Positions 4,608 to 45,175 of a stretch of DNA of 64,000 nt are shown here, in pieces. The DNA comes from Macrostomum lignano (Eukaryota): assembly GCA_002269645.1 (NCBI GenBank), contig NIVC01000211.1, positions 310,001-374,000 of the forward strand. Reading direction: 5' to 3'. Both the position numbers and the translations under genes were made by a program. The notes under the pieces were generated by a model. The model made no database searches and was not told the origin of the DNA. It worked only from the letters and a program-made list of their open reading frames with translations. Position 1 is the stretch's first letter. Each line of letters starts with the position of its first letter.

Positions 4608-4708
4608 AATCCTCTTAGCGCAGTGTCATTCGGGTATATATATTCCTAGTTTTGCCGCGGCCCTCATCACTCAGTCAAGCACTCTAACAAGCTCAACTTG
4701 CACCCAAA

Positions 4709-8900: not shown

Positions 8901-10409
8901 GCCTGCCGAGTGGTGCTTGGTGGTGCTGCCACTCGAGATCGGCCGTGAAAGTCGTCCAGGTCGTAGTCGGTCTCAAAGTGCAGAACACTATACTCGTAGT
9001 AATGGCGTAGAAACCAAAAGGCTCTGATCGTGGCGTAGCAATCCAGATTTTTCTTAATTATCTGCACGAATTCAAGCAGTACGAGCTATTTTAAATGTCA
9101 TAAGGTGCTCCGAATTCCGGCACATGCAGCTTGTCGATTCGTAGCCCTTTAGAGCGCCCAGTCTACCTGTTGATGCTGAGTCATTTACTAGCTAGCATTG
9201 TCCGACACTTGCTCGCCTTACGTCAGTGCTCTGATGGCAATTATCCTTCTGTTGCGTTTCATAGACGCGTATGCCTCTATTTTAAGAAGCGAAAGAGTGA
9301 CTGACAGGTGCTTCAGATATCAGTTTGTTGATTTGCAGGCCTTTAAAGTATGAGGATATGTTTTGCCATCGAAATTTTACCTTTGGAACTCTCAAGCCAT
9401 CGACATATTGAAATCAATGTCGTGTGTCGTAGCAATTGTCACAGCAGTGACAAGGTTATGAGTTTGAGTAGAAAACCGCCTTATTTTCTCACCATAGTCA
9501 TCATTAGTACGCCGCCAGCTGCTGTGGTTGAAATCCGTATTGAAACAATGTTGTGACAATATTATTAAGTTAGACAGAAAATCATAAATTAAGTGATAAC
9601 CAGAGACTTCAGATTCACAAATTACGTTCTGAGCGTTAAGCCCCGGCCTATATGGCCAAGGCCAATCCTTTTCTGGAACTTAATGACCGGCGAAAGCTTT
9701 AATTTGGGTCAGTGCTGAATAATTACAGTTGAACAAGTCTGGAATTGATTTTGTGGTCATGTCATTTTTTCCTTTTTCTGCCGTTATGCTTTGTTTTAAT
9801 TTTTGTTGTCTTAATCGATGTCATATAAATTCTCCGTAGACTGACTGTCGTTTGGCGAATGCCTCGTTGCTTATACCGGTATAGTTTGTTTTGTGAGTGC
9901 ACTGTGGATATCTGTAGATTATCTGATTTGTTTTGTAAATTTACAGTGGCTTAAATGCTTTTTAATGAAGGTCTTGTTGCTTACATGCTTTTTGATGTAG
10001 GTCCTGTTGCTTACATGCTTTGTGATGTAGGTCCTGTTGTAGACTAAGACAGAGAGATACAACTGAGAGTTGACGAAGCCTGTTGGCGTTTATTAGATCG
10101 ATACGCAGGTTAAATACGATACAACGATTGTTACATAACTGGGTATAAAAGATGGAGACAGGGGTGGGTGAAAAGCACGTACATGCTGTACAATAGCAAC
10201 CCCCACCCCGCTCTAGCGACTGGCGCATACAAGTACACTTGCAACTCACTACAATCCTCCCCGGCGAAAAAGATCAATAACATTCGAACGAATAATTCGA
10301 AGGAAACATAAGAACAGTAAAACATTCGAAACAATATTGGTATAAAGAATTTCTCGCTTTCAACTAATTCGCAACAGTCAGTAGAACAGTCACTGAGTCA
10401 ATCAAAAAT

Positions 10410-13400
10410 TCAACCGGCCACATAGCGATCAACCGGCATCCGCCCACGCATCGGGTAGCGTCTCGGGGGCGGCTCCTCGTCCGCCTCATCGCCGCCGTGC
10501 GCCGCGTGCGCAAAGGGCGGCTGCAGGAAGCGCTCTCCGTCAGGGACTGGCAGGATCCGCGGCCGCAGACGATTCACATTCACCCTGCGGGTCCGTCCGT
10601 TCTCGATCTTTCGAAGTTCGACTACCAGATCCCGCTGCGACAGCACCTGCCAGCCCGGCTCCCAGTACGGCGCCAGCTTGGAGCCCCTCATCTCGATGCG
10701 CAGCAGAACCTCGTCTCCAGGACTGAACGTGCGCAGCTGCCCGGTCGACCTGTCGTAGCCGCTCTTTTGCTCGCCAGCCGCCTGCACCAGATGCTCCTCG
10801 ACAAACTCTCGAATTCGCAGCAGGTCGCCCTCGAGCTTGTCGGCGTAGGTGCGCACGTCATAGAATCGCCTGGACTGCTGGCTGATGACCGGCAGGCTCG
10901 GATCGCGCCCGGTGAACACCTTCAGTGGCGGCAGCTGTGTTGAGCAGTGCACCCGGGAATTGTAGGACAGCAGGATCAGTGGCAGCTTGTCCTCCCACTC
11001 GCTCTCTCGCTCGGTGAAACACCTGAGTAACTGCAGCACTGACTTGTTGCCCGACTGCTAATCCGTTGCCTTTGGGATTGTAAGCCGTTGTTCTTGTCTT
11101 CGGGACTCCCAGGCCTCGCAGAGTGTCTTGAAAAAGCTGAGACTCGAAATTCGGTCCTTGATCGGAGTGGATGACTCGGGGAAGTCCAGTCTGGAAGCAG
11201 ATGGAGAGGAAGGCGCGAGCAGTAGTCTCAGCAGTCTGGTAAGGAATCGCCACGGCCGTCAGGTACTTGAAAAACTGATCCTGAGCCACCAGCAGATATT
11301 TGTTGCCGCGCGATGATGGCGCCACCTTGACGATGTCGATAGCCACAGAATCCCACGGCGAGCCGATTGGCTTGGCAGTTCTCCGAGCGGTGCGCTGGTC
11401 CGCGAGCCCGCTTTCTTCTCCTGACAGACAGAACAACTCTGGCAGTGTTGCACGATGTCTTCAGCCATGCCGGGCCAGTAGGCGGTCAGTTTCAGTGTGC
11501 GGTAGCATTTCTCGGCTCCGAAATGACCTCCCAGACCTTCGTGAGCGTCAAGAACTGTTGTCGAAGCCGCGCTGGCACCACTGGAACCTCCCGCAGGCCG
11601 TCCGGGTCATTGAACTTGCGCAGTAGAACACCGTCATCATCCAGCTTCAGCTTCTTCCAGATTCTGCCGAGTTGCTGCAGTGGTCCTGCTCGCTATCTGG
11701 GTGCAATTTTTGCGTCCTTGTCTATCGCCTGAATCACCTGGCTGAGCTCCGGGTCATGTCGCTGCGCAGTTTTGAGCTCTTCAGTGTCGATTTCCGGAGT
11801 CAGCTGCGTAGCTGCGACTTCTTGACCGTGCAGTCTGGACAGCGCGTCAGCATCTGTGTTCTCAACGCCTCTTCGGTACTTGACGGTGAAGTCGAACTCT
11901 TGAAGCAGCAGACGCCATCGTCCTAACCTGCCGTAGCTGTCAACTCTCTGTGAATCGATGTAGGTGAGCGGGCAGTGATCCGTGTGCACCGTGAAATGCT
12001 TGCCGAGAAGATAGTGGCGAAAAACTTTGAATGCGTGCAAGATGGCCAGGCACTCCTTTTCTGTTGCAGAGTATTTCTTCTCAGCTGAATTGAATGCGCG
12101 GCTTGAGAACTCGATCACCGCCTCGCCTTGCTTCAGAATTACACCGACTCCGCTGCCACTGGCGTCCGTGAAGACTGAGAACTCCTTAGTGAAATCGGGG
12201 TTCACCAGGATCGGAGGACTAATTAGGCACCTTTTGAGCTCGTCGAAGGCCGTCTGGCATTCCGAAGTCCAGTCAAATGGGACGCCCTTGCCAGTCAGAT
12301 GATGCAGCGGTGCGGCGATGGCAGCGAAGTTGGCTTACATGGCGTCGGTATTGGTTGCACAGGCCGATGAACTGACGCACCTCCTTGGCTGACCTCGGCT
12401 CTCTCCACTGCTGAATTGCCTCCAGCTTCTCCTGGCTGGGCTGGGCACCATCCTTTGAATACCGTGTGCCGAGAAAGGTCACTTCGGGTACCGCGATTTT
12501 GCACTTGGAGCCTCTTAATGTCAGTCCGGCTGCTCGAAGTCGCTCGAAGGTCTCTCGAAGTTGCCGCAGATGATCCGACTTGGTCTTTGAGAAGCAGAGG
12601 CTGTCATCGAAGAACGTGAAGACGAAATCGCAGCCGTTGAAAACTTTTGACATTAGCATGCAGAATGTACTTGGGCCCCCGACAGACCTTGGGGCATTCT
12701 CTTAAATTGGTACAGCGGCATCCCTGGTCCCGGACAGAAAGCAGTTTTTAGCTTGTCTTCTTCTGCCATCGGAATTTGAAAATAGCCTCCATTGAGATCC
12801 AACACAGAGAACACTGAACTGCCTGCGATTCGATCTCTTGCCTCCTCCATCAACGGAATTCCCTGTGCAGAGCGAATAGTCTTCTTGTTGATCTCTCGAT
12901 AGTCTATGGTCAGGCGGAGACTGCCATCCTTCGTTGTCACGTACACCGGTGGGGCCACGTATGGACTTTCGCTCAGCTCTATCACGTCGTTCTCCAGCAG
13001 TTCCTGAATCAGCTGCTCTACCTTCTCCCGGTAATGCACAGGCATTCGGCGCGGTGGCACTCGGACAGGTACTTCATCCGAGAGAACAATTCGGTGATGT
13101 TGCAGATGAGTTAGTCCCGGCTTTTTCTTGAACAAGTCTTTGAACTCCACCAGCAGCCGTTGTACATCAGGGTCGTCGGTAGTCGGCAACTCGAACTCTT
13201 CACAGCTGAACTCGGGGACGAGTGCGTCTTCGATGTCAACTGGATCGTCGGTGTCAGCCTGGAATCTGGTGCTGCAGACTTGGCCGGCTTCTTGTGAAGA
13301 TCCTGTGAAGTCCAGTTGCAAATTATGCTTGCCGATGAAGTCGAATCCAACAATGACAGAGCAGACCAAACCTGACACAACGAAAAACAATTGCCGGACT

Positions 13401-13765
13401 GTCACTCCACCGACTGTAAGTGGCAATTCGATTTGCCGTTCTATGCTAATTGGCTGCTTGTTCACTGAATGAAGTCGCACTCTGGCTGCAGTTGCCTGTC
13501 TGAGCTGGGATTTTGTCAGGATGCTGGACTCAACTAGTGAGCACTGGCTTCCGGTGTCTAACAGCGCCTTCACACTTCTGCCATCAAGCTTGCACTCACA
13601 CTGCGATAGTCGGTCGGGCGCGACGCTGCATCCGTCGAAGATCCCGCCGACTGTGAGCGCCGGCCTTGAAGCCGCTGCTGCTGGGCCCGCAGTTACTGCT
13701 GGCCGGGGTTGCGGGCCCGCACACCCCAGCCTCTGGCGTTTCCCGGCTGTCGCCTGCTGTAGCAA
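10410..13765 (-). pseudogene. pol: Pol (protease, RT, RNase H, integrase) broken by several frameshifts into ORFs 12653-13765, 12273-12659, 11693-12205, 10858-11436 and 10410-11039
   Basis: Protease LLDTGS; RT LRLTIDYREIN, LDLNGGYFQI, FFDD; RNase H VFTDASG...YSATEKE...TDH; integrase VAIDIV...HSDQGPNFES...YNPKGNG. Confidence 0.93.
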
Positions 13766-14502
13766 TCTCTGGCAATGTGGCCGGCCTTGTGGCAGTTGTA
13801 GCAGATGATGTCAGACTTCGAACGGTGCTGCGGTCTCGTTGTGCTGCTCGTCCTCACTCCACAGGCTGCCAGCTGCTGCAGCTGGGAACTCAGGGTGCTC
13901 ACCGATGCCTGCAGACTCTGCACAGTGTCCCGCAGCTCCTGAACTTCGCTGGATTGGCTCGACTGAGGTTGCACCGCTGCTGCTGGGATACTTGGCGAGC
14001 TGTGCTGCATCAGTAGCTGGGCCTTTTGAAGAGCTTGCTCTGAGGTCTTAGCGCTGGAGTCCGCGCGAATCTGCCAGCTCACGGATTCGGGAAGGCCACA
14101 GACGAACTGATGGAACAGCAGAGCCTCTTGAGCATCTTTGTTGTCCACGGAGGAGCTTTTGAGCATCTTCTTTAACTCGTAAAGATACATGCGTGGAGTC
14201 TCATTCGACAAAATCTTCCTTGATTTGAACGCCTCCATGACGGCGAAGTGCTCGCGGTTCGGGTGGAATGCATCATCCAATGTCTGGACTACTTTGTCGT
14301 AGTCTGCCTGATCTCCTGCCGACAGTTCCAAATAAACGACGAGAGCCTCGCCATCCAAAAATGTGGCCAGTCGCTCCGCTTTGCACGTGTCCCACTTGTT
14401 GACTTTTGCGCATACATTGAAACGCTGCAGCCATTCCTTAAAGTTGCCGGTACTGAAAACTCTGGGCAGCGCTGCACTGGCGGTCAAACCTTTCTCAGCC
14501 AT
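13693..14502 (-). CDS. gag: Gag with CCHC zinc knuckle, 269 aa
   Basis: CYNCHKAGHIARDC; first ORF after the PBS; overlaps pol in another frame. Confidence 0.92.
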   Translation of the reverse strand: MAEKGLTASAALPRVFSTGNFKEWLQRFNVCAKVNKWDTCKAERLATFLDGEALVVYLELSAGDQADYDKVVQTLDDAFHPNREHFAVMEAFKSRKILSNETPRMYLYELKKMLKSSSVDNKDAQEALLFHQFVCGLPESVSWQIRADSSAKTSEQALQKAQLLMQHSSPSIPAAAVQPQSSQSSEVQELRDTVQSLQASVSTLSSQLQQLAACGVRTSSTTRPQHRSKSDIICYNCHKAGHIARDCYSRRQPGNARGWGVRARNPGQQ

Positions 14503-15607
14503 TCTAGAATAATTTGCTCTGCTACCAGTTGTAGACTAAGGCAGAGAGATACAACTGAGAGTTGACGAAGCCTGTTGGCGTTTATTAGATCGATACGCAG
14601 GTTAAATACGATACAACGATTGTTACATAACTGGGTATAAAAGATAGAGACAGGGGTGGGTGAAAAGCACGTACATGCTGTACAATAGCAACCCCCACCC
14701 CGCTCTAGCGACTGGCGCATACAAGTACACTTGCAACTCACTACACTGTTGCTTACATGCTTTTTGATGAAGGTCTTGTTGCTTACATGCTTTGTGATGT
14801 AGGTCTTGTTGCTTACATGCTTTGTGATGTAGGTCCTGTTGCTTACATGCTTTGTGATGTAGGTCCTGTTGCTTACATGCTTTGTGATGTAGGTCCTGTT
14901 GCTTACATGCTTTGTGATGTAGGTCTTGTTGCTTACATGCTTTTTGATGAAGGTCTTTTTCCTTACATGCTTTGTGATGTAGGTCTTGTTGCTTACATGC
15001 TTTGTGATGTAGGTCCTGTTGCTTACATGCTTTGTGATGTAGGTCCTGTTGCTTACATGCTTTGTGATGTAGGTCTTGTTGCTTACATGCTTTGTGATGT
15101 AGGTCCTGTTGCTTACATGCTTTGTGATGTAGGTCCTGTTGCTTACATGCTTTGTGATGTAGGTCCTGTTGCTTACATGCTTTGTGATGTAGGTCCTGTT
15201 GCTTACATGCTTTGTGATGTAGGTCTTGTTGCTTACATGCTTTGTGATGTAGGTCTTGTTGCTTACATGCTTTGTGATGTAGGTCCTGTTGCTTATATGC
15301 TTTGTGATGTAGGTCTTGTTGCTTACATGCTTTGTGATGTAGGTCCTGTTGCTTACATGCTTTGTGATGTAGGTCCTGTTGCTTACATGCTTTGTGATGT
15401 AGGTCCTGTTGCTTACATGCTTTGTGATGTAGGTCTTGTTGCTTACATGCTTTGTGATGTAGGTCTTGTTGCTTACATGCTTTGTGATGTAGGTCCTGTT
15501 GCTTACATGCTTTGTGATGTAGGTCCTGTTGTTTACATGCTTTGTGATGTAGGTCCTGTTGTTTACATGCTGTCGTTTTGGATACTCTATAGCCTACCTA
15601 GCCCCGT

Positions 15608-16060: not shown

Positions 16061-16889
16061 AGTTTGTCTTTTCTTTTTCTTGCTTTCGTTAATTTTTGCT
16101 TAAAATTATAATTTATCCCAGATGTTCAGACTTGACTGGATCAAGCAGTGATTAGTTAGAAGTTTAGAAATTCCTATTTGTGTTTTACTTTGATATTTTA
16201 CGCAACTAAATTGGTTTGAACTGCTTTTAAATAGTTTTTTATAAGAGTCTAAATCAGTTACACTAGAAGAAAACACGATAGCTGGTATTTTGTGACGAAA
16301 AAGGATATAACTTTTCTATTAATCAAGACGAGTTCTATCATTATTCTATAATTTTCGGCAACTCACGAGCTGACGAGCGCGCTATTCTTGTGCCGACATG
16401 TACTGCCTCTCTCACTTGGACCATTCACCTCAGCTGATGTTTGGCAGCTTGTGCTGTGACGGAGTGACCTAGGTCTCGCATGCTGAACCAGCTGCCCCAG
16501 GGTGGTTAAAGATGCGCACCAAAAGTAAATGAGACTGGACTCTCAACCATCTACGGGCAAAGATTCAAGGGCACCTGTAGTCTAGTCATGGCCGATCTAA
16601 GGGTCTCTGTGCGATGGTATCGACTGAACAGCCCAACAGAGAAATGCTGGTTCGACCCCCTACTACCAGGACCTCTCGACCAATAGAATAATTTCTCAAC
16701 AGTACCGCTCTAACTAAAAATTCCAAAAATATTAACGGATCCTACCCCAGAAACTCGCCATGTTTTCTCAACCTATCGAATCGCAAAGGGCTGAAGCCCC
16801 ATCTGCAATAATCACGCGTCACCACACGCGATCCTCTCCAACTATGGACACTAGCTCTGGACACTCATTCTTGTGTGTCGAATGGACAC

Positions 16890-17447
16890 ACTTCCACAAG
16901 TCATGAACACCCATTTCTCAGTGTCATCGGGTACTCATCCCCAAGTCATGGACACCCATTTATGAGTGTCATTGGGTACTCATCCTCAAGTCACGGACAC
17001 CCATTTCTGAGTGTCATTGGGTACTCATCCCCAAGTCATGGACACCAATTTATTAGTGTCATTGGGTACTCATCCTCAAGTCACGGACACCCATTTCTGA
17101 GTTTCATTGGGTACTCATCCCCAAGTCATGGACACCAATTTATTAGTGTCATTGGGTACTCATCCTCAAGTCATGGACACCCATTTCTGAGTGTCATTGG
17201 GTACTCATCCCCAAGTCATGGACACCAATTTATTAGTGTCATTGGGTACTCATCCCCAAGTCATGGACACCAATTTATTAGTGACATTGGGTACTCATCC
17301 CCAAGTCATGGACACCCATTTCTGAGTGTCATTGGGTACTCATCCCCAAGTCATGGACACCCATTTCTGAGTGTCATTGGGTACTCATCCCTAAAATCAT
17401 GGACATCTACTTCTGAGTGTCTTGGGTACTCATCCCCAAGTCATGGA
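16890..17447. repeat. 45-bp minisatellite (GGGTACTCATCCCCAAGTCATGGACACCCATTTCTGAGTGTCATT), about 12 copies
   Basis: Read directly; 15-aa period in ORF 16875-17486. The last unit is interrupted by the 9.7-kb element. Confidence 0.95.
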
Positions 17448-18338
17448 ACTACTAAGGGATTCCGTATGGCGCGATTTTGGAGGTGAGGTGGGTGTCAACC
17501 CTCCTCGCCTCTCATTGGCTGGCGCCCCGATCACTAGGTGATCGATACCCGTATCGATATCGGCGCTCGGCGCGCGCGCGCCGCAGGCGCGTGGCGCCAA
17601 GCGCCGTCCAGCCGCAGGCGACCCTCCCCAGCCACCGGCGACCCTCCCCAGCCGCAGGCGCACCTACCGATATGTATGCCCACCCTACCGATATGTACCC
17701 CGATATGTACACCCTCCCGAGCCGCAGGCGCACCCTCCCGAGCCGTAGGCGCCCATGCCGCAGACGCCCATGCCGCAGACGCCCATGCCGCAGGCACCCC
17801 GAGTGTACACTCTACCGAGCCGCAGGCACCCCGAGTGTACACTCTACCGATATGTACACTCTACCACTCTCCCGATATGTAGTCAACGATATTAGGCTAG
17901 TGAAAACTACTTATAGTAGGTGAAATTGAGTATATTTACATAAAAATGTAGATAAAACATATTGGTAGGTGAATAATGACGCATATTGCATATTAAAATG
18001 TACATATTGGAGCATATGAGCAGCAAAAACACACAATGTAGGTGTATGGGCAGAAATAGACAAAGCAGGTACTGTAGGCGCTACATAGGTGGAAATACAC
18101 ACAGCAGGTTTACAAAGTGTACTTTCGATACATATCGGATTAATGTATAAAGCAGGTTTACAAGGCATGCATAAGGTGTAGTTGTATAATACAGGCACGC
18201 ATGTATAATCAGATTATAGGCAAACGCCCAGGTGCAACAGACGCGTAAATAATGTCGCACCGACTAAAGAGTAAATATTGTCTAACCCGCAGGTGCATAA
18301 ATATTAAACAAAAGCGGTTCGGGGAAATCCCAAAAGGG
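17448..18338 (+). repeat. Left TIR of the 9.7-kb element (~890 bp), with internal GC-rich subrepeats
   Basis: Reverse complement of 26260-27152. The ORF track shows mirrored identical ORFs (e.g. 17911-18198 and 26402-26689). Confidence 0.95.
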
Positions 18339-18656
18339 AGGTTTTAGCCGCCCGTTTTCGCCACCGCCGCCGCCGCCCTAACCCTCTTATAGGTACAATT
18401 GCGTTGAAAGTATTTCGAGTCATTAGGTTGTAATGACCCTCCATATTTTAGGTGGGTGGACTCGAGCCCGGGGCCAGCCCATTTCAGTTTTTTGGGCCGG
18501 CCCCTCTGCCAATTTCCTCCCTAGGAGCGAGCTATCAGAATTGGTCTTTTAACCCCCGTGTATACACACATAGAGGCCCCCAGCTAGCGCCCATTCTAAC
18601 CTACCCAGTGTACAGTGTTGGGTTCCCCAAACCGCGTACAAAGAGAAATACCCTTA

Positions 18657-19671
18657 TCAGTCAATCTCCATACGCTCCCTCAGGGCTGTCTCGTACGCGG
18701 CCTCTTCCTCCACGCTCTCGAAGCAGTAGTCGGATGACTGGCAATGTGGAAATTATAACAGTCAATGTAGATAGAATATATGCAAGGTATATGATTAGAT
18801 GAGTTGTGTATATAATGTAATATCTTACCAAATCTAAATCGTCCTCCAGCCGCCACAGACGTAGAGACGCTGTATAGCGCACCAACGAAAGGTGCTCCTC
18901 CCAGTTGGAGGGCCATGCGACGGGCTCATCCCACGCAGTTGGCCGCGCTCCCGGACCGGCCAGGTACGCCTCAGAGTCGGGGGCATACGAATTGCGCCCC
19001 ATCAACCAGTCCTGGTGCAGAGTCTCAGCCTCCAACACCTCCCGTAGGCCGGCACCCCTCGCAACCAAAGTATCAAGAACCCGATTAAAGGCTCTGACAA
19101 AGGTAGCTTGGGAGGGCAGCCCGCCAGGATGCCGAGACCTCAGCCAGTCAATGTCCCCGCGGAAAAATGAGGCCACAATGCGAGGAAAGCGCTCACGAAC
19201 CACGGCGATCTCCTCAGACATATCCTCGTCCTCGTCGTCGAAGAGAAGGAGCGTAGCGGCTGATGATATTGAGGCCCGGTGGGAGGTAGTTGAAGCAGCA
19301 GCAGAGACGGGCGTAGTAGAGGCGGCAGCAGCAGAGACGGGCGCAGCAGAGGCAGGGCCGGTTGTGGTCAGCTCCTCAACAGAGACGTCAAAGAGGGCGG
19401 CTGAGGCGGTAGTCAAATCGGAGGCAGTAGCAGCAGGGGCACCGTTCACAACCCCGCCGATAGCCAGCAGCGGGAGGTCAAAAACTTCAGACTCGGTGTC
19501 GCTATCATAGGACATAGCCCAAGCTAGATATTGATCAGCCTCCCAATTATCACTTCCGTTGTTTTCAGTGCCTAGGGGAACTATGTGTTCAGGGATATCC
19601 CCGTCGAGGCTGGTTAACTCTTCAGTCGGGCGATTATTATCCCAGAGGTTGGATAGAGCTCGGCGGGACAT
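18657..19671 (-). CDS. Acidic, Ala/Ser/Thr-rich hypothetical protein, 2 exons: complement(join(18657..18737,18829..19671)), 307 aa
   Basis: First ATG at 19671 (MSRRALSNLWD), TATA-like TATATAATTA at ~19750 (minus). AT-rich intron 18738-18828 (GTAAGA...CCAG, phase 0) leads to SSDYCFESVEEEAAYETALRERMEID*. Confidence 0.6.
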
Positions 19672-19786
19672 GCTAGAATCAACAGAGAGTAAAGTATTAG
19701 AGCTGAGATAGGGTTTGACTCTCTGGAGAGGGGGAAACACTAATTATATAGACGGATCGAGTGAGGCGGTGCGAACCAATAGGAAA

Positions 19787-20320
19787 CTAGCAGTCCCAAC
19801 CCTCGTTAAACAGATTTTCCCAGGGTGGAGATTGGTAGGGTTTGAGACCCATGAGCTGAAGAACATCCACCTCAGTCCCGGCTACCGGAGGCGTGTCTGT
19901 CTTGACTCGCTTGGCTGGAGGGGGTGCCTCAGGTGCCGGCTTGAAGAGCTTGTCCAAACGGGCGGCAAACATCCGGCGCCACAGTTCAGGCGTGAATTCG
20001 ATCGTGTAGCGCCAATTAAACTTTGGGTCCTGATTGAGCCAATTGCGCAGCAAACGGATCCTCCCTCGCGAAGCTTCAACTGCCTTGAAATTGCCCAACA
20101 GGACCCGCTTGTTCACGTGAAGGCGGGCAGCAGCCTCCAGGTCAGGGCGCGCAGCTTCGAGCTTCTTCCACTCTGGCTCGGCCAAGTAGATTGCAGGGAA
20201 GCCGTCCTTCCACACTCCGGCCTCGTTGGTGTAGAGACGCCGAATTTCAATCAAGTTGTGTTCAGTTTCAAATGTGGGCTTCCGCGCCACAAAGTTTTCG
20301 TATAGAGAGATAGAAGACAT
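19787..20320 (-). CDS. Protein with tandem PC4-like (ssDNA-binding) domains, 177 aa
   Basis: IEIRRLYTNEAGVWKDGFPAIYLAEPEWKKLEAARPDLEAA follows the PC4 pattern IDIREYW...G.KGISL.PEQW..L. A weaker second copy is RIRLLRNW...YTIEFTPELWRRM. By-eye alignment only. Confidence 0.6.
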   Translation of the reverse strand: MSSISLYENFVARKPTFETEHNLIEIRRLYTNEAGVWKDGFPAIYLAEPEWKKLEAARPDLEAAARLHVNKRVLLGNFKAVEASRGRIRLLRNWLNQDPKFNWRYTIEFTPELWRRMFAARLDKLFKPAPEAPPPAKRVKTDTPPVAGTEVDVLQLMGLKPYQSPPWENLFNEGWDC

Positions 20321-20559
20321 GATTTAGCAGCAGCAGCAGAGAGCTCTCTGACAGCCGTGCAGCGCCTTATATACCCCCGGGTGGAGGGTGGGGTGGGTGA
20401 TGATTTTGGGGTGATTTTTGATGATTTTGGTTGGTTTTTGGCGATTTATCCAATAACAGGCGAGCTGAGCAGATTTTTTAGTATATATACAGACCCCCAG
20501 AGCCAGGGTAGAGAGATAAATCCTTCTCTCTCCGCTCTCTCACGCTCTCTGTTTGCAAA
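20321..20559. promoter_or_regulatory. Likely bidirectional promoter between the PC4-like gene and pPolB
   Basis: Divergent starts at 20320 (minus) and 20560 (plus); TATA-like TTATATA at ~20367 and TATATATA at ~20483. Confidence 0.45.
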
Positions 20560-23500
20560 ATGGCTAAACGCAGCGCCGCAGCAACTGCTTTCCTGGCTGA
20601 CAAGAGGCAACGTCTTTATGGTAAGTTTTAATTAATTTCTGTCTAGACTGTAGTTGCTAGGGTGGGGTAGGGGCTGAGCAGCAGCAGCAGCTGCAGGGTC
20701 TGTGGGACCGCAGAGTAAACAACAAAGACTGCTGCGACAGCTGCAGGGGTCTAGACTGGAGTTGCTAGGGTAGGGTGCTGCGGCAGGGTCTGTAACAGAG
20801 AGTTGCAGGGGAGGGCTAGACAAGTTTCAGCCGGGTGTGTGCTGATAAGAAATTGCTGCTAGGGGGGTGTTGTCCAGACAGGCTGCAGCTGGGGTGCAAA
20901 TTGCTGCGACAGAGAGTTGCAGGGGTGAGTAAACAAAGACTGGGGTGGGGTGTTGTCTAGACAGGGAGGGGTGTGCTGATAAGAAATTGCTGCAAAAACA
21001 GACAGTTGCTAGGGTGCTGCGGCAGATAAGAAATTGCTGCAGAATCGTTGGGGCAGGCTAGACAAGTTACAGCCAGGTGGGGGCAGAGAGTTGCTGGGAC
21101 TGTGTAGCGCGGGGACAGACTGATAAGAAATTGGCAGGGGCGCTACCCAGACAGGCTGCAGCTAGGTGCAAATTGCTGCGACAGAGAGTTGCAGGGGTGA
21201 GTAAACAAAGACTGCTGCGACAGGGAGGGGTGTGCTGATAAGAAATTGCAGAGAGTTGCTGCGGGGACAGCAGAGTAAACTCTGTTAAGAAATTGCTGGG
21301 GCTAGGGCGGGGAAACACGCTGGGGCCAGGAAAATGACAGATTCTTCTGGTTTTTTATCTCCTTGTGTTTTTTCAGACGCGTTTGTCCCGCCAACACAGC
21401 CGGAATCTGTTACCGGACCGGGTGAGTTATCCAGCCCCCATTTCCCACACAGACCCTGGCTGACTCACACTCCCCCATTCCCCCATGCAGGTTTTACGGC
21501 CCGGCTGGATAATCAGCGTGACCTGCCCAAGTTTAGGGCAAAGGGTGTCGAGTATGTGGTGCATATTACCAACACCGAAGATTTGCGGGAGGTGTTTGCT
21601 GACATGCTCGAAGTTTTCAAGCAAGATTTGGCTGGTGATGACTTTATGGCCGCGAAATTCGAGAGCGACAATATGCTCAAAGCGGCCCACACTCCCCCGG
21701 TGCGTGCATCCCGCATGACGGCTGAATTGTTGTTTAAGCACATCAACAAGATTGTGCAGTCGGATGCCACTGTCCTGACGGGCAACTTTTCTATCCGGTT
21801 GCTAAAGGCCTGGGTGCCTCGAGGTGGATGTGCTCTCGAGAACAAGCATCTAGAAGAGCGGCACGCCTTCTCCAAGCACTATGTCCGCATCACCAACTCG
21901 GACAAGAGATGCCTGCTGCGCGCTCTGGTCGTGGCCTGCGCCTACCTGCAATTCGTGGCCAAGTCCATCACCAAGCGGGTGTGGCACACAATCAAGGCCA
22001 ATTCGCCCACGCAGACTAAGCTGGTGGCTGAGCTACAAATCGAAGCTGGCCTCTACACGGTAAGTTTCTAGTATTTTTCTGATAAGAATTTTTACACAGT
22101 ATCGTGGAATACTAAAAGATATATTTTCTGATAAGAATTTTTACACAGTATCATGGAATACTAAAAGATATATTTTCTGATAAGAATTTTTACACAGTAT
22201 CGTGGAATACTAAAAGATATATTTTCTGATAAGATTTTTTACACAGTATCAGGGAATACTAAAAGAAATATTTTACCCTCCACACAGACTCTTCAAACCG
22301 TCTCGCAGGCTGGTCCTTTCGGGGTGGATGCACTGCCCGAAGCGATCCGTGCCCTGAACCGGCTGCATCCAGGGCACGATTTTGGTGTACGCGTGTACCG
22401 CGCAGAGGAGGCCAACAGGTGCATCTTCAACCTGCCGGGCACCGAGATTCTGCACCTACACCTGGTCGAGCAGCACTTTAATGTGGTCACCAAGCTGCCT
22501 GCGTTTTTCGGCAGCCACCACTACTGCGACAAGTGCGAGATGGCCCACGACTGCAATAATGAGAAGCACAAGTGCGCTGATGCCTGCAGCACATGCAAGA
22601 CTCCGGGCTCCAACTGTAAGGCAAACCGCGCATATGTAAGATGCCATGATTGCGGGCTAAATTGCTATAATGCTCAGTGCCTAGAAAATCACAAGCGCAA
22701 GAATAAGGCCGGCAGATCGCGCTGTGATTCGGTCCACGTTTGCGGCACGTGTGGCTATCTAGAAGAACTAAAAGTAGGCCAGCCCCCTGAGCATCAGTGT
22801 GGTTACGCCAAGTGTCCAGTCTGCAAGCAGTACGACGAAACTGCCACCCACGAGTGCTTTGTCACCCCGCCCAAAGCCAAAGAGTCTAGCGCCCCGTATG
22901 TTTACTATGATTTCGAGACGTACGTGGACTCTGGCAAGCAGCACCGGGTACACTTGGTTACGGCTGCCACCTCCTGCGAGGCGTGTCCCAAACTCTTCCC
23001 CAGGCCCGCTGCAGCGTGTGCGGGGACTACACAGCTCAGCCAATTGCATTGCGGGACGCGATTTGGCGCTCGATTTCACGAGCTGTGTCTCGCACAATGA
23101 CTGTGCCTGTGGGATGCGAGAGTTTGTATCTGTCGGGCCGCACTCTATCGATGCCTTTTACTGCTGGCTGACTAGTGTGTTCAAGCAGGGGGCAATTGCT
23201 ATTGCGCACAATGGCTCTGCGTATGACGCATTCCTCCTGCTCGGCGCCCTACTCAACGGACTGGCCAAGAAGAAGCCGCAAGTGATCTTCCAGAACAGCC
23301 GCCTAATGTATATGAAGTGCGACAAGATCACCTTCAAGGACAGCCTCAATTTCATCCCTATTGGTCTGGCGCAATTCCCAAAGGCGCTTGGTTTGGGCAC
23401 CCAACTGACCAAAGGAGATTTCCCGCACGTGTTTAACCAGCCGGAAAATTGGGGGTACGTGGGACCCTACTGCTCAATTGATATGTATGGAGGAAAGAAA

Positions 23501-25664
23501 AACAAGCAGCATGACTCCATCGCAGACTGGCTGGCCAAGCAGGAGGGACAGGTGTTTAATTTCAATAAGGAGTACCTGGACTACTGCCTGCAGGACACGT
23601 TAATTTTGCGGGAAGGCTGTCTAAAGTACACCCGCCTGATTAAGGACATTTGCGGACTGGACGCATTTGTTCAATCCAACACCATTGCGGGCTTGGCTAT
23701 GGCTGTTTTCACCACCAAGTTTATGGAGCCCAACACTCTTGGGGTGATTTCCCGCCGGTCCGATGTACAGTCGCACAAGGCGCGGTGCTGGCTGCGCATT
23801 TGAATGCAACCGAGTTTGGCGGCCGGTTGCGGACAGCGGACTCGGGCGGCGAGGCTTTCGCCATGGGCCGTAAGGTCGACGGCTTCGACCCAGAGACCAG
23901 GACAGTGCTGCAGTTTCATGGCTGTTTCTACCATGGCTGTCCCAAGTGCTTCCCCAACGGCGACGTGCTGCACCCGCTCAAGAACCAGCCAATGCGGGCG
24001 ATTTATGAGGAGACTGAGCGCTTCACCCGGTTGCTCTCCACTGCATACAATGTGCGTGTTCTGTGGGAGCACGACTATCAGGACGAGGGAGCGCCAGTCC
24101 AGCAGCCTATTCACCTGGAGGATGCCCTGTTTGGCGGCCGTACCGAGGCTTTTGTCCCGCACGCCGAGGCCACCGAGACTGTAGAGCTGCGCTATCGGGA
24201 TGTGGTAAGTTTGTACACTTGTACACACACAGTTGACATGCGTTTGAGTTTATCTTATCCTCTAATTCTCTATTATCCTTATCCCCTAGGTGTCGCTCTA
24301 CCCGACTGTCAACAAGTTTGACAAGTACCCGGTCGGGCACCCGGTACACCACCCCGAGCCTCATCTACTGGATGAGCTGCAGCTGGCCCGGTATTTTGGC
24401 ATCGCCGAGGTGTCGATTCTGCCGCCAACCAATCTCCACATCCCGCTACTGCCCGCCAAGATTAACAAGAAGTTGGTTTTCGGCCTCTGCCGCGTCTGCA
24501 TGGAGACACAGTGCAGCAGCGAGTGTACACACACTGACGCTGAGAGAATGCTCCGCGGCACGTGGTCGACCCCAGAGCTCCACAAAGCCCTGCAGTTGGG
24601 TTACAAGCTGCAGTCAGTTCATGCCCTGGCCTATTGGACCGAGACTCGCACGGGCCTGTTTGCAGATTATGTAAACACTTTTTTGAAGCTCAAAGCCGAG
24701 TCTAGCGGTTCGCCGGGGATGGCTGAGGACGCCAAGGCTGCCTACATGGCCAGCTTTTTCGAGCGCGAAGGCGTCCGGCTGGAAAAGGTGGAGGAGAATC
24801 CTGGCTTGCGCTTTGTGGCCAAGATTTTTCTAAACTCGTAAGTTTTTTCTACTTGCAGTGGGGCCGTGTTTTTCTACTTACAAAAAAAAATTTATTTTTC
24901 CCTGCAGGCTCTGGGGCAAATTCTGCCAGCGCGACGACCTGACCTCCACAGAGATTGTGGACAGCTACGAGGCGTGGCTGCAGCGCCTGACCGACCCCTC
25001 GATCAAGGTCAAGTCGTGCGAGCCAATTGGGGAGAGCTTCATGATGCTCGAGTACAAGCCCCGATTTGGCGGTGCTGGCGAGCGGGCGTTCAAGTACGCT
25101 AATGTACCTATTGGCGTTTTCACCACCTCCCACGCCCGGCTGCGACTCTACGAGGCTCTGGAGGGTCTAGGAACCCGCGTCATTTACGCCGATACTGATT
25201 CGTGAGTAATTTTTTCAACTGTCTCTGTCTCTCTTTCTCCCTTAACACTTTATCCTTCTCCTCCTCCCAGGGTCGTATACCGCTGCTCTCCGGGCGAGTA
25301 CGAGCCTCCGGGCGGTTCGAGTTTGGGGCAGTGGACTGACGAGGTACCTGCTGGCTGCCGCATGGTACAGTTCACCACGGGAGGCCCCAAGCTCTACCGG
25401 TACGTGGTGGAGAAGCCTGACGGGTCGCTGTACTCGGTGCTCAAGTGCAAGGGCATCAGAGTCACACCCGAGATTTCCGAGCGCGAGGACGAGCTGCAGG
25501 AAATTCTGCGTCACGGCGGGACTGTACGCCTGCCCCAGGCCCAGTTCAGGCGCGATAAGGCTAGCTGTACAATCCGGACCCTCGAGATGGACAAGACTTT
25601 CCAGCGCGTAATGACTAAGAGGGCGTATGGGGCCGCCAGCCGTCCGTATGGCTTTCGTGAGTGA
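20560..25664 (+). CDS. Protein-primed DNA polymerase B, 6 exons: join(20560..20620,21377..22059,22309..24204,24290..24837,24908..25201,25271..25664), ~1290 aa; frameshifts near 23000 and 23795
   Basis: vOTU-like ITNSDKRCLLRAL...QHFNVV; Exo I YYDFETY; Exo II AHNGSAYD; KDSLNF; Exo III YCLQDT; VSR-like VDGFDPETRTVLQFHGCFYHGCPKCF; FGGRTE. After splicing, the motifs read RDV|VSLYP, KIFLNS|LWGKF and YADTDS|V; KCKGI follows. All five GT-AG introns preserve the frame. Confidence 0.92.
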
Positions 25665-25829
25665 GTGAAAGATAAGGATCTATCTTTTTTACGCCTGGGA
25701 TTCCCCTATGTGCCCACTTGGGATCCCTTGACTCTTGGGGTTGAAAAATGGTTTTACGCCCGCACTGTACTTAGGGGTCCTTACTCTTTTGGCACCTCCA
25801 CTGTACATTGAGCGGGATCCCCTCAAGTG

Positions 25830-26075
25830 TTAAAACTCCCATTTGACACCTATTCCCTCGGGGCGGTTTGTGGCCCAGCGGTCCGCCTCTTGGAGTAGAA
25901 CTCCTGACATAAACTTGCTGCGCTGATTAGCGTACTGATAGCGCAATCGAAATACGTCCATTTTTCTAGCCCACTTGTGGGTACATTTACGTTGAAAGAT
26001 GTTGATGCGTTCAATAACGTTGTAATAATAATAAGTCTCCACATCATAGGGCGGCGAAACCTCCCTTTTGCTCAT
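25830..26075 (-). CDS. Small hypothetical ORF, 81 aa, aromatic and basic
   Basis: ATG-initiated, inside the element and convergent with pPolB; no recognisable motif. Confidence 0.3.
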   Translation of the reverse strand: MSKREVSPPYDVETYYYYNVIERINIFQRKCTHKWARKMDVFRLRYQYANQRSKFMSGVLLQEADRWATNRPEGIGVKWEF

Positions 26076-26259
26076 CTATTTTAGACAATAATGAGACTCT
26101 GACCCCGGGAGGTTAATGGCTGAGCGGGTAACCCTGGCGGTATAAAACAGGGTGACCCAGGCTCGATTCCTGGCTGGGGGCTGTAGACTTTTCCGGCCCC
26201 TGCGTCACTATTGGGTTTAATTGTGTTGAAAGTATATCGGGTCATTAGGTCGTGAACCA

Positions 26260-27152
26260 CCCTTTTGGGATTTCCCCGAACCGCTTTTGGTTAAAATTTT
26301 TATGCACCTGCGGGTTAGACAATATTTACTCTTTAGTCGGTGCGACATTATTTACGCGTCTGTTGCACCTGGGCGTTTGCCTATAATCTGATTATACATG
26401 CGTGCCTGTATTATACAACTACACCTTATGCATGCCTTGTAAACCTGCTTTATACATTAATCCGATATGTATCGAAAGTACACTTTGTAAACCTGCTGTG
26501 TGTATTTCCACCTATGTAGCGCCTACAGTACCTGCTTTGTCTATTTCTGCCCATACACCTACATTGTGTGTTTTTGCTGCTCATATGCTCCAATATGTAC
26601 ATTTTAATATGCAATATGCGTCATTATTCACCTACCAATATGTTTTATCTACATTTTTATGTAAATATACTCAATTTCACCTACTATAAGTAGTTTTCAC
26701 TAGCCTAATATCGTTGACTACATATCGGGAGAGTGGTAGAGTGTACATATCGGTAGAGTGTACACTCGGGGTGCCTGCGGCTCGGTAGAGTGTACACTCG
26801 GGGTGCCTGCGGCATGGGCGTCTGCGGCATGGGCGTCTGCGGCATGGGCGCCTACGGCTCGGGAGGGTGCGCCTGCGGCTCGGGAGGGTGTACATATCGG
26901 GGTACATATCGGTAGGGTGGGCATACATATCGGTAGGTGCGCCTGCGGCTGGGGAGGGTCGCCGGTGGCTGGGGAGGGTCGCCTGCGGCTGGACGGCGCT
27001 TGGCGCCACGCGCCTGCGGCGCGCGCGCGCCGAGCGCCGATATCGATACGGGTATCGATCACCTAGTGATCGGGGCGCCAGCCAATGAGAGGCGAGGAGG
27101 GTTGACACCCACCTCACCTCCAAAATCGCGCCATACGGAATCCCTTAGTAGT
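26260..27152 (-). repeat. Right TIR of the 9.7-kb element
   Basis: Near-identical to the left TIR for ~850 bp; diverges in the innermost ~40 bp. Confidence 0.95.
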
Positions 27153-28015
27153 CATGGACACTCACCAAAAGGACTTCCTAACCCCCTGACCCGTCTCCGA
27201 CATGCCAATCAGCGACGTGCGCCAGACCGACTCTTTCTACCTTCCTACCGCTCCTTGGGTAGGGATGCCTTAGAGTCATCGGCTGTAATTATCTCACTGA
27301 AGCCATGCTCTCGTATCCTTACAAGAACCGAAGGCGTGTAAGCATGTGCACATGGTGCTCTCAAATGGCATGACTTTAAAGCTGCCTCAACGTTTTTTGA
27401 GCAAATGCTCCGCTCTTTTGTCTATGACCATGTTTTTATTCTTACTGACTGGAGCAATTGCTCTGCAGCCGAGAACTTTCTCATGAATCTGAGTTTGAGC
27501 ATTTGCTCAGTTTATTCATACGGCCTAATTTTTTTATTTCCACTCCCAGATGTCAGCTTTTCCACGGTGTTTTTCACGGTAGACAATGGCTCTTTTAAGC
27601 CTACAAAATATCGTCAATGCAGAAGGGACTGTCAACTTAGAATTTTAATGGAAAAGGCTAATTAACACAGCGGATATCCGCGTGCCGGTGTCGAATACCA
27701 GTGCGTTGGACCGAAGGCAGAGCAGCTCAGCGGTAGAGTGTACATGACTGACGATTAGAGTGCTGTGCCTGCGTACAGCACTGGTGCGCTTGTATGTGCT
27801 CAGGAGCCAGCGGAATGGAAAGAATTGCCTCGGACGAATGTCTCTGAAAGCGTTGTTCCAGGATGCCCACAGCGCATCATTAATATTTTTATTTTCATTA
27901 CTACTACTATTGCTACTATTATTATTAATATTATTATTATATTCTGAAAATTTAACTTGGGCCGGCAATAAGTGAAGGTGAAATATCATTGAAAACCATT
28001 TCTCTCTACGTCAGA

Positions 28016-34381: not shown

Positions 34382-35559
34382 ATAGACAAGCAGTAGCTGT
34401 TGGTGTGGTGTAAAAGTGTTTTGTAACTACTGGCAGTCTTCTTGTTGGTATGCATTCCTATCTCTTATTTTCCCAGTTGTATACATCACTTCCATACATC
34501 TGTCTATGTAGGTATCTATCTATGTGTGCGATCGATTTCAGAAAAAAACGGCTCAACCGATTTTTCTCAAACTTACACGATTCAATCACAAATTTTCCCG
34601 TGACGGCAGCTACATGTTTCGTAGATAAGAAATTGCATGAATTATTGCACTGGCTGAGAAAAGGATTATTGCACTTTATGAGTAAAATATTATTGCACTA
34701 GTTGAGGAAATTTTGCACTAGCTACTTGCCATTTGGGGGTTGCTTGCTGTCTGGGAGATGCTTTCTATTTACGGGGAATGTCTGCTATCTTTGTGAAGGC
34801 TTTATTTTATTTTCTCCTTTTGTTACTTTTAGAAATAAAAGAGATTCATACATAACAAACATCTTTGTCCGTGACAAGTTTAATTAAAAAAGGTCATCTA
34901 TAAAACTGAAGAAGGAACTGGTTCTTTAAAAAAAGTAGCATAATAGCATAAATAATTATTGTTTCATGCTTATTGGCCGCCCCGAAGGTTGTTAGTATCA
35001 TCGAAACCTATTGCATAACAGGACATCGTCTTTGGGTTTAGGCTAATGAGACATACATTTAAAAATCATGAATTTGATATTTCAGTACTTCATGACATAT
35101 TCACTTAGTTATATAGACTTTCGGTTCCTGGCATGAAGAAATGTTTTTTGTGAATAAAACCCGAGTTTTATAATGTCAATTTGTTTATGCTTAGTATTAA
35201 GGAGAAATTATATGCAATGGTAGATCTCCTTCCAGTATTCTTCACTCGATTGTACGCGCACTCATTAACCCCAGAGTTTGCAGACCGCGGCATCTCTTAG
35301 GCGGGTCAGCTAGGTAGCACAATGGCATGGCTCTTTTTAGGGGTTTACAGCCCCAGGCCCTGACCGATGCTTTTGTGTGCTGCGAGACGAACTGTACGCG
35401 CGGCTATTGTACCCGAGCAGTTTTAGTGTGCAGCCAGCTCTTACTCACTGTTCTTTTCTAACTTGTATTTAAGCGTCGAGACAGTGCACAGTTAGCAAGA
35501 TAACTACTTTTGAGAAATTTTTGTGCGTTTCTTCGTTAACAATAAGATAGAGAGACTCA

Positions 35560-37098
35560 ATGGCTGAATCAGTTGATGGTGGAATCGAGGTCCGGTCCAT
35601 GCAAACGGTACTTGGCCTCGATGATGAAGGTATTCCAACCAGCGACACCTACAACGTTGTTGTGAAAGACCATGGAACAAAGTCTGGCATGAAATACGAC
35701 AGTGTCTGCATCACTCCGGCTGCTGAACTCACTTACGATGAGTTGCCTGAGAAGACACTGCAGGTGCTATTCACCAAGGAAGAGCAGCACGACGGACTCA
35801 GCTATGCAACCATTGCTGTCCATGAAACCCCGGTAGAGTACAATGAATCTACCACCATGTCGAGGATCGTCCACCTAAGAGGTAGCAAAAGATCGACTCT
35901 CGATGCGGATGGTCAAAAACAGGAAGGTGTGATCGCCTCCGACTCTGATACCCAAAACAGCATTCGATATGGACGCGTGCCTGATTCAGGTGGATCAAGT
36001 CAACAGTTCGGAGTCATGGAATCCAATCCCGAGGCTCACATGGGAATAAGGACAGGAGCTTCAAGCAACGACGAGCAAGAGGGCGTCTTCGCATCCGACC
36101 CTGAAGCTTTAAAGTACATCAAGTTCGGTCCGAAGCCTGGAGCGAAAGCCAGTGGAGCGTCGAGCAATGACGAGCAGGAGGGCATCTTTGCCTCAGACCC
36201 TGAAGCTCTAAAATACATCAAGTTCGGTCCGAAAGACGGTGCCTCGAGCAACGACGAGCAGGAAGGCATCTTTGCGTCGGACCCGGAGGCCATGAAGTAC
36301 ATCAAGTTAGGTCCGAAGCCTGGAGCAAAAGCTAGTGGAGTGTTGAGCATTGGCGAGCAAGAAGGCATCTTCGCGTCAGACCCCGAAGCTCTAAAGTTAA
36401 TCAAGTTCGGTCCGAAAGACGGTGCCTCGAACAACGACGAACAAGAGGGCGTCTTCGCATCCGACCCTGAAGCTTTAAAGTACATCAAGTTCGGTCCGAA
36501 GCCTGGAGCTAAAGTCGGTGGAGCGTCGAGCAATGACGAGCAAGAGGGCGTCTTCGCATCCGACCCTGAAGCTCTGAAGTACATCAAGTTTGGCCCGAAG
36601 CCCGGAACGTCAAGCAACGACGAGCCGGAGGGTATCTTTGCGTCAGATCCAGAAGCCCTGAAGTACATCAAGTTCGGTCCAAAACCTGAAGCTAAAGCCA
36701 CTGGAGCGTCAAGCAATGACAAGCAGGAAGGCATCTTTGCGTCCGACCCGGAGGATTTAAAGTACTTTAAGCTCAGTCCTGAGCCTGCAAAGCAAGAGGA
36801 GAATCCACCAAAGGATCAAAAAGTTGTAGAATTCGGTACGGAAGCCCAGTCGGCTACGCTTGAAGAAGGCGAATTTGTAGCCGAGGCGACTGGTGTGCAA
36901 CTCAAAGACGAAAAGACCTACACGGTGAGAGTCACTGGTCACGATCTGCCCTATGGCCAACAGAAGAAATTCATCTCCGTGCGCAGCGCCGACGGAAGCG
37001 GAGGCCTGACGCCCCAGGAGGTCGACAACTTGGATGTCAAAGTGGAAACTTGCGTTGGAGAAGACGGAATGGTGGAGAAGTTCGTTGTGGTTGAGTAG
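35560..37098 (+). CDS. Intronless 512-aa acidic protein with ~8 repeats of SSNDEQEG(V/I)FASDPEALKYIKFGPK; cadherin-like features
   Basis: Long ATG-initiated ORF. The repeat units differ at synonymous positions, which suggests it is coding. VIASDSDTQNSIRY resembles the cadherin A-x-D-x-D...I-x-Y motif. Confidence 0.7.
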   Translation: MAESVDGGIEVRSMQTVLGLDDEGIPTSDTYNVVVKDHGTKSGMKYDSVCITPAAELTYDELPEKTLQVLFTKEEQHDGLSYATIAVHETPVEYNESTTMSRIVHLRGSKRSTLDADGQKQEGVIASDSDTQNSIRYGRVPDSGGSSQQFGVMESNPEAHMGIRTGASSNDEQEGVFASDPEALKYIKFGPKPGAKASGASSNDEQEGIFASDPEALKYIKFGPKDGASSNDEQEGIFASDPEAMKYIKLGPKPGAKASGVLSIGEQEGIFASDPEALKLIKFGPKDGASNNDEQEGVFASDPEALKYIKFGPKPGAKVGGASSNDEQEGVFASDPEALKYIKFGPKPGTSSNDEPEGIFASDPEALKYIKFGPKPEAKATGASSNDKQEGIFASDPEDLKYFKLSPEPAKQEENPPKDQKVVEFGTEAQSATLEEGEFVAEATGVQLKDEKTYTVRVTGHDLPYGQQKKFISVRSADGSGGLTPQEVDNLDVKVETCVGEDGMVEKFVVVE

Positions 37099-40275: not shown

Positions 40276-40333
40276 ATTAAGTTAATAGACAGTAGAATGC
40301 ATGAGGGGGCTTCTGGGACAAAATTTTTCACGT

Positions 40334-40630
40334 CCTCCATAATCCACCTAAATCCATCCATATTATCCCTGACAGAATCAGAAAAAAAGGGGGGTCGCAC
40401 TTGCTCCGAAAACGTCCTCCATAATCCCATTAAATCCATCCATATTATCCCCGACAGAATCATAAAAAAGGGGGGTCGCACTCGCTCACAAAACGTCCTC
40501 CATAATTCACCTAAATCCATCCATATTATCCCTGACAGAATCATGAAAAAGGGGAGGGGCCGCACTTGCTCCGAAAACTTCGAACATAATCCCATTAAAT
40601 CCATCCATATTATCCCTGACAGAATCAGAG
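40334..40630. repeat. ~82-bp subterminal tandem repeat (about 4 units) inside the Polinton TIR; mirrored at ~56330-56630
   Basis: CATAAT unit starts at 40338, 40420, 40501 and 40585. Confidence 0.9.
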
Positions 40631-40832
40631 CAGGTGTCCACTGATACCTGTTATGCTCACTGACACTGACATAATCCACTGACATCCACCCATAGCATTT
40701 TCGAAACAATAAGAAAATAATCTGCATTCTTCTTCCCACATTCAATTTGCAACGCGAAACCAGATCCCTAAAACTTTAAATCATCAGCGCAGGGTCCTTA
40801 CCCATTGAAAAAAATCTAATTTTTCTCTAAAA

Positions 40833-41072: not shown

Positions 41073-41131
41073 TAGCCAACTACAAGGTTGTACCTGGCGG
41101 CTTATATCAATGTTACAAGTCTGAAGACGAC

Positions 41132-41989: not shown

Positions 41990-42010
41990 TTTTTTATTGA
42001 AAAAAATTAT

Positions 42011-43306: not shown

Positions 43307-43338
43307 TTTTTTTAACTAAAAATAAAATAAAATAAGAA

Positions 43339-43851: not shown

Positions 43852-43856
43852 ATTTT

Positions 43857-44082: not shown

Positions 44083-44117
<35 letters not shown>

Positions 44118-44579: not shown

Positions 44580-44595
44580 TTTATTTCAAGTAAAA

Positions 44596-45135: not shown

Positions 45136-45175
45136 AAATTATTTATTATTAAAAAAATTTTCATCATAGAAAAAA

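Follow-up and report, generated by a model that had tools for sequence, protein, structure and literature searches.

What sustains a mobile element of an animal genome that encodes its own protein-primed DNA polymerase and neither an integrase nor a capsid protein? The question is raised by a 9,705-bp element (positions 17448-27152, hereafter element A) in a window of 64,000 nucleotides of the Macrostomum lignano genome (GCA_002269645.1, contig NIVC01000211.1, positions 310,001 to 374,000 of the forward strand). An initial reading made from the letters of the window (the sequence-only reading) described A as a replication-only linear replicon, like a linear plasmid or satellite, that uses a helper in trans. 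We found that the same genome harbours a second family of elements, B, which shares the tips of A and carries the integrase and virion genes that A lacks, and that the two are very probably complementary segments of a bipartite Polinton (Maverick/adintovirus), A being the replication segment.

A partner element with the same ends

A search with the first 16 bases of A returned 63 ends, and behind this same tip lie three types of interior, designated A, B and C. Type B elements are 10.3–10.6 kb long, have terminal inverted repeats (TIRs) of ~655 bp and carry on one strand a Fic open reading frame (ORF), several unknown ORFs, a TBP-like ORF, integrase, minor capsid, a small ORF, major capsid, protease and ATPase. 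Fourteen B copies were read whole, 12 of them 10.3–10.6 kb in length and two with a 3.4-kb insertion. A target site duplication (TSD) flanks 13 of the 14, and all 14 contain all 11 B probe ORFs and no match to the proteins of A, including the polymerase. The terminal 32 bp (17448..17479, plus strand, at the left end of A), identical at 32 of 32 bases, are the sole DNA common to A and B; otherwise the comparison gave one 36-bp match and no tblastx match.

The integrase assignment is supported by a Pfam rve match (E 2e-9) and visible DDE motifs, and the predicted model of the major capsid protein (MCP) matches Vp54 of PBCV-1 (E 5e-15) and also the MCP of mavirus, which points to a double jelly-roll fold. 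The ATPase and protease ORFs display Walker A/B and H-D-Q-C motifs, respectively, and are similar to ORFs of a one-piece family; for the protease, a PDB sequence search returned no match and Pfam gave just Peptidase_C48 (E 0.06). The minor capsid protein, which we take to be the penton, was tentatively named by its position and a motif. The order integrase–minor capsid–small ORF–major capsid–protease is the one given for vertebrate Mavericks in the relevant part of PMC8097293. The TBP-like ORF (L015:1849-2382, minus strand) scores slightly below the cut-off for Pfam TBP (E 1e-4); 14 of its 15 PDB sequence matches are TBPs (best E 0.003), it is 76% conserved in the sister type B' (see below), and it has no ATG of its own, pointing to splicing, a frameshift or a non-AUG start. 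The Fic/DOC-domain gene (L015:3922-4725, minus strand; E 7e-14) was not found in three B' loci and is accessory cargo.

B-type ends number 57 across the genome, and B capsid genes occupy 28 places. None of the 97 polymerase places (A and its sister type) lies within 47 kb of any of the 62 B or B' capsid places, which come from a search that scored 95 of 448 candidates. Longer family members with these ends plus integrase and capsid genes, which the sequence-only reading had named as a finding that would speak against it, did not turn up: the genome yielded no such element with the complete gene set.

Structure and genes of element A

The long, near-identical TIRs and clean 6-bp TSD noted earlier are both real: the TIRs (17448..18305, plus strand, and 26295..27152, minus strand) are 858 nt long and 100% complementary, with the likeness continuing to ~896 nt, the termini read 5'-ACTACT...AGTAGT-3', and CATGGA flanks the element on the left (17442..17447) and on the right (27153..27158), no strand being assigned to either copy. 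An 858-bp TIR and a 6-bp TSD, the latter present in 14 of 14 copies, lie within the ranges of 100-1,500 bp and 5-8 bp given for Polintons in the consulted part of 10.1101/2023.08.22.554363. The element sits in a 45-bp tandem array (window 16790-17447), which 30- and 32-bp arrays adjoin. A search of Rfam gave no match within A.

The protein-primed DNA polymerase B (pPolB) gene (20560..25664, plus strand), identified from Pfam and spliced joints, consists of seven exons (20560-20620, 21377-21421, 21491-22059, 22288-24204, 24290-24837, 24908-25201 and 25271-25664). Two of the 14 scanned frames match DNA_pol_B_2 (E 3e-15 and 5e-13), polymerase motifs are present, and relatives with 29-33% identity occur in other animals and in metagenomes. 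All six introns are of the GT-AG type and appear as joints in assembled contigs from four public runs of four studies, each joint in 2-4 runs; because these runs are presumed to be RNA and none is recorded as such, transcription of A rests on the spliced joints in the contigs. Where the frame is open the protein has 1,276 aa, and in the copy at 17448-27152 it is interrupted, as assembled, at three sites, two near 23.0 kb and one near 23.8 kb.

On the minus strand, a 177-aa ORF preceded by a TATA-like motif (19787..20320) is probably a single-stranded DNA-binding protein of the predicted PC4/Pur/Whirly fold: its model (pLDDT 75) superimposes on human PC4 with an rmsd of ~2 Å across 66 residues (E 0.008) and on Pur-alpha with a Z score of 9.0 and an rmsd of 4.0 across 118, and its relatives score under the cut-off for Pfam PC4. 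A remoter family of PC4-like ORFs (29-34% identity) occupies ~50 places in the genome and probably belongs to another mobile element family. The acidic gene (18657..19668, minus strand) is spliced from two exons (19668-18829 and 18737-18657) into a frame of 306 aa, for which Pfam, PHROGs and Atlas gave no match worth retaining (best Atlas score 0.78). Hence the polymerase, the PC4-like gene, the acidic gene and the presence of introns, all proposed by the sequence-only reading, were borne out. The small ORF that it counted among the interior genes (25830..26075, minus strand, 81 aa) was not: its start lies inside a 234-bp stretch (25977-26212) that is complete in just two of 13 copies, and it is probably not a gene. 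The reported lack of an integrase, capsid, ATPase and adenain-type protease was confirmed by a Pfam scan of A and by tblastx against B, which has these genes; for a helicase, there was no match among the scanned ORFs of either A or B.

Family A across the genome

Searching the 764-Mb genome at the nucleotide level gave 15 scored loci with 95-100% identity to A. The search with a polymerase exon (117 rows, 134 of 134 candidates scored) was merged, leaving out split pieces and three weak rows, into 56 A-type places (at least 88% identity) and 41 sister-type places, counts that exceed the true number of insertions in an assembly with duplicated contigs. Multiple copies with different TSDs had been suggested as a check, and indeed each of the 14 copies complete from end to end is 9.36–9.77 kb long and has its own 6-bp TSD, two of them representing a single insertion on two contigs; A is not a one-off deletion. 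The interiors of 13 copies differ by 0.3-2.8%, with a pN/pS of 0.125 for pPolB. Both A and B include recent insertions and both halves are under purifying selection. The coding indels in A, 34 in number, are without exception losses of one or two bases, a pattern that suggests long-read error. In UniRef, the nearest proteins bear the label Macrostomum lignano.

Of the 56 A-type polymerase places, 32 are accompanied by the PC4 and acidic genes, 18 by the PC4 gene alone and six by neither. The acidic gene, missing near 18 of the 50 A-type polymerases with a PC4 neighbour, is accessory; the variant without it measures 8.7-9.0 kb, as judged from coordinates only.

Hypervariable tips

Within the terminal 32 bp, bases 1-7 are fixed, bases 8-27 are hypervariable and a fixed T-run follows. 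Copies differ at 37-47% of bases 8-27 and at 0.5-1% of bases 28-120, and the tip difference is the same within and between the segments (A-A 0.462, B-B 0.459, A-B 0.458), in a sample partly chosen via one tip variant. Seven of the nine variants of bases 8-19 seen on A are also found on B, and the 37 distinct 20-mers are combinations of 18 left and 12 right blocks, with six four-gamete quartets. The tips of A and B are drawn from one common pool. The same variant stands at both ends in 10 of 14 A and 11 of 14 B copies, and some copies with an intact TSD bear two unlike tips. This pattern would fit elements that replicate as free linear molecules, whose ends are corrected through panhandles and whose template is switched now and then, and the 32 bp are a putative origin and integrase attachment site. 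The hypervariability itself could possibly be a way of evading a host factor or parasites.

The sister pair A' and B'

The split recurs in a related pair of elements. The polymerase exons of A' are 54-74% identical to those of A, with several introns in the same positions and one A intron missing; its length is 9.5-9.7 kb in the four of seven loci that had both ends inside the examined stretch. None of the seven A' loci has a match to B genes, and some A' elements have the PC4 gene. The capsid of B' is 88% identical to that of B, B' elements of 9.8 and 10.2 kb have a TSD, and none of the three B' loci has a match to the polymerase. Both A' and B' terminate in ACTACGTA (57 and 65 ends) and have tip variants in common. 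Between B and B', dN is 0.065-0.15 and dS is ~2 or saturated; between A and A', dN is 0.24-0.26 and dS is 2.2 or saturated. With dS near saturation and dN low, the split predates the divergence of the two pairs, and both halves have been kept under selection.

One-piece elements are also present in this genome. A family at L135-L136 keeps its polymerase on the same molecule as its integrase/capsid genes, and the window itself contains, at 40291-56670, a complete unrelated 16.4-kb Polinton with AGTAGA ends, the TSD ATAGAC and, by eye, ORFs for capsid-like proteins, ATPase, polymerase and integrase on a single molecule. Its polymerase presumably has an endonuclease-VII-like motif. This element, 13 kb downstream of A, was considered as the helper of A and rejected, having other ends and another type of polymerase. 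One A' copy (G000:C1485:44228-62496) appears to be nested in another element with A'-type ends, giving four ends.

Type C palindromes and unusual elements

Type C elements are non-coding, 8.4-9.4 kb long and flanked by a TSD in 14 of 14 cases; 13 of 15 are palindromic over almost their whole length, and they contain pieces of the terminal repeats of both A and B. We liken them to snap-back defective genomes. Their similarity in size to A and B is a hint of a packaging limit.

Several oversized elements were examined as candidates for a one-piece form and rejected: the 18.4-kb element in C56 is without any A or B gene, the 14-kb elements in C4 and C2210 are B with insertions, and the 11.9-kb element in C150 is B with a duplicated end. 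No polymerase was found in the oversized elements with B ends. The C56 element (G000:C56:643541-661960, L051-L052) has B-type ends and a TSD, is mostly non-coding and may have captured host DNA. Other unusual forms include a 1.4-kb miniature element with a TSD (L024), an A/C chimera with half a polymerase and a TSD (L046), a B element with a TSD that bears an A-type tip (G000:C150, L064-L065) and a B' whose capsid end is duplicated in inverted orientation (G000:C1313, L061-L063).

A proposed bipartite Polinton and its alternatives

In the proposed system, A would provide the protein-primed polymerase and usually the PC4-type single-stranded DNA-binding protein, and B the integrase, major and minor capsid proteins, packaging ATPase and maturation protease. 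By analogy with Polintons and adenoviruses, the A polymerase would prime at ACTACT termini, whichever linear molecule bears the common tip, and copy that molecule by strand displacement; the displaced strand would fold back via its TIRs, so that the two ends stay alike and tip variants recombine between molecules. The B integrase would then insert any molecule having those ends, and the palindromes of type C would exploit the functions of A and B alike. Whether the virion proteins of B package one ~9-10.5-kb molecule per particle is, by the same analogy, an even call; the similar segment sizes and a capsid gene evolving under purifying selection are at most indirect signs of separate packaging and of transmission between cells or hosts. 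Since both segments are present in many copies in one germ-line genome, every cell has both, and the need for co-infection, normally the price of dividing a genome, would fall away. The helper in trans postulated by the sequence-only reading is retained in so far as the integrase must come from elsewhere, but the helper B is itself without a polymerase and the dependence is mutual. B has no polymerase in 14 of 14 copies. The label that suits A better is therefore replication segment of a Polinton in two parts, rather than linear plasmid or satellite of an autonomous helper. The earlier rejection of a simple deletion derivative stands as regards a fixed multi-copy family; descent from a Polinton is nevertheless most likely, by way of an old split and not a recent deletion. 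From a weak Pfam match and matches in vertebrates, we infer that A and B belong to the Beta class.

Several observations weigh against this interpretation. The spliced 1,276-aa polymerase frame is open in only three of 13 A copies, and integrase or capsid frames are open in 5-6 of 12 B copies. Elements of 1.4, 14 and 18.4 kb with the same ends exist, which weakens the packaging argument, and tips and interiors are weakly correlated (Mantel r 0.19-0.46), so that tip exchange is occasional, not free. The capsid search scored the best 95 of 448 candidates, reaching families at 30% identity, and of the 241 A/C-type tips, 100 are among the matches listed. In metagenome loci of at least 5 kb with a 30-35% identical capsid, a polymerase is present in 19 of 40 and always of the endonuclease-VII-like type; such combinations are hybrids, the Beta polymerases going with this capsid cluster, according to the pertinent part of Starrett et al. 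(PMC8502044). The main gap is the failure to recover a one-piece relative that unites an A-type polymerase with a B-type capsid, so that the common ancestor of A and B is inferred only. In the MCP tree, B, B' and three outside proteins form one clade (100/100); these outside MCPs are 80-81% identical and come from contigs of 1.8-3.8 kb, too short to judge segmentation, and viral contigs scanned with the MCP, an MCP alignment and the A' polymerase yielded no relative. Finally, particles, free linear DNA and activity in trans belong to the proposed part of this scheme.

The complementary gene sets could also mean that A and B are non-autonomous deletion derivatives of a one-piece master of ~19-20 kb, missing from the assembly or persisting as a free virus. 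Together they do make up one standard Polinton gene set, the quoted limits of the capsid and tip searches leave room for such a master, and polB-less Polinton insertions are known in butterflies (10.1101/2025.02.07.637071, in the portion consulted). However, the TIRs (858 bp in A, ~655 bp in B) are unrelated past 32 bp, purifying selection acts on both A and B, the same split is seen in a sister pair with dS near saturation, intron positions are common to A and A', and no joined form was seen among 97 x 62 places; we regard this explanation as improbable. About as improbable is a one-way dependence or merger, in which a plasmid-like A uses the integrase of B, B is copied by the polymerase of some other Polinton, and the two need not have a common ancestor. 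The genome does contain further Polinton families that encode polymerases of their own, and the common ancestry of A and B is presumed, but the ends of B match those of A and draw on the same tip pool, whereas the neighbouring one-piece Polinton ends in AGTAGAATGC, and A' pairs with B' through a second end signature. That the split is an artefact of assembling a long repeat can be practically dismissed: duplicated contigs and frequent single-base losses do occur in this assembly, and at two C loci an internal end leads into a mirrored flank, but for 41 of 42 copies of types A, B and C both termini are present and bordered by matching 6-bp TSDs (chance ~0.0002 each), in differing flanks.

The bipartite reading can be extended to a natural bipartite double-jelly-roll dsDNA virus of an animal, whose segments are packaged and integrated apart, whose split has been kept through two sister lineages, whose partners are marked by a recombining 20-bp tip block and whose size-matched palindromes are defective interfering genomes. 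We see the chances for and against this fuller version as balanced.

Comparison with known systems

A Polinton is by definition an element with polymerase and integrase together. Alone, A has the pPolB and lacks the integrase, the virion module and intronless core genes, and its 9.36–9.77 kb fall short of the 13-25 kb of Polintons, a range that includes the ~20 kb of A + B. Being without an integrase, A by itself is not filed as a Polinton; A and B together work like one. Polintons/Mavericks (group 1; Beta adintoviruses), as portrayed in parts of PMC8097293 and PMC8502044, have the same pPolB, rve integrase, double-jelly-roll MCP, penton, ATPase, protease, long TIRs, 6-bp TSD and trinucleotide-repeat ends, but here this gene set is divided over two separately inserting elements of 9.5 and 10.5 kb. 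The pPolB of A has six spliceosomal introns, whereas intact vertebrate Mavericks are described as intronless in that part of PMC8097293, and the ACTACT..AGTAGT ends of A are the reverse of AGTAGT..ACTACT, the commonest motif of vertebrate Polintons.

Bidnaviridae and the Drosophila Vesanto virus are likewise segmented; one of their segments encodes a pPolB of Polinton origin, and the segment termini match (PMC4061559, PMC8502044, PMC8363768, as far as their consulted sections go). They differ in having ssDNA, a parvovirus-type capsid and a helicase (superfamily 3 in Bidnaviridae) and no integrase, none of which applies to A/B, where all genes are of Polinton type, the capsid is a double jelly-roll and both segments integrate. 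The polB-less insertions of Pieris mannii resemble B in being mobile without polB, but in the account given in 10.1101/2025.02.07.637071 (in part) full-length families coexist with them and polB was displaced by retroelement cargo, while here no full-length form was found and there is a dedicated polymerase segment. Cytoplasmic and mitochondrial linear plasmids are, like A, linear TIR-bounded pPolB replicons without virion genes (PMC11071308, in part); A differs in being nuclear, as its spliced genes indicate, in its precise integration with TSDs and in its tie to a virion/integrase partner. A satellite has an autonomous helper, and the sole end-matched helper found, B, has no polymerase in 14 of 14 copies; A and B instead carry complementary genes on separate molecules with common terminal signals, as multipartite genomes do. 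Bipartite endogenous florendoviruses also have their genes over two components, and are plant pararetroviruses with no integrase and an unrelated mode of replication.

Other features of the window

A Gypsy-type long terminal repeat retrotransposon occupies window positions 9900-14750 on the minus strand, with pieces of gag, protease/reverse transcriptase, RNase H and integrase and 221-bp direct repeats at 10033 and 14525. Pieces of a host gene with fibrinogen C-terminal-like motifs, recognized by eye, lie at 4688-6123, and a 515-aa ORF at 35551-37098 runs on a 183-bp (99+84) tandem repeat.

Implications

The literature that we covered reports neither a bipartite Polinton nor Polintons of Macrostomum, while Repbase, Dfam, supplements and subscription papers, which were outside its scope, could contain entries. 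What is new here is a Polinton gene set split over two inserting elements, an architecture that a specialist would not expect. Surveys that accept only loci with the complete core set inside 20 kb, as in the consulted part of 10.1101/2023.08.22.554363, would overlook such a split form. In a 2017 review, the table of multipartite virus families includes no dsDNA family (PMC5680193, the table and adjoining text), and what drives genomes to divide is still an open question (PMC5094692, in part). In M. lignano, the halves, their sister pair, one-piece relatives and parasites are all found in one genome as datable insertions, so that the idea that integration into the germ line abolishes the co-infection cost becomes testable by genome comparison. 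The system provides evidence for Polinton proteins acting in trans on any DNA with the ~32 terminal bases, suggests a possible route to segmented pPolB viruses such as the bidnaviruses, and the two-piece arrangement could show how divided virus genomes originate.

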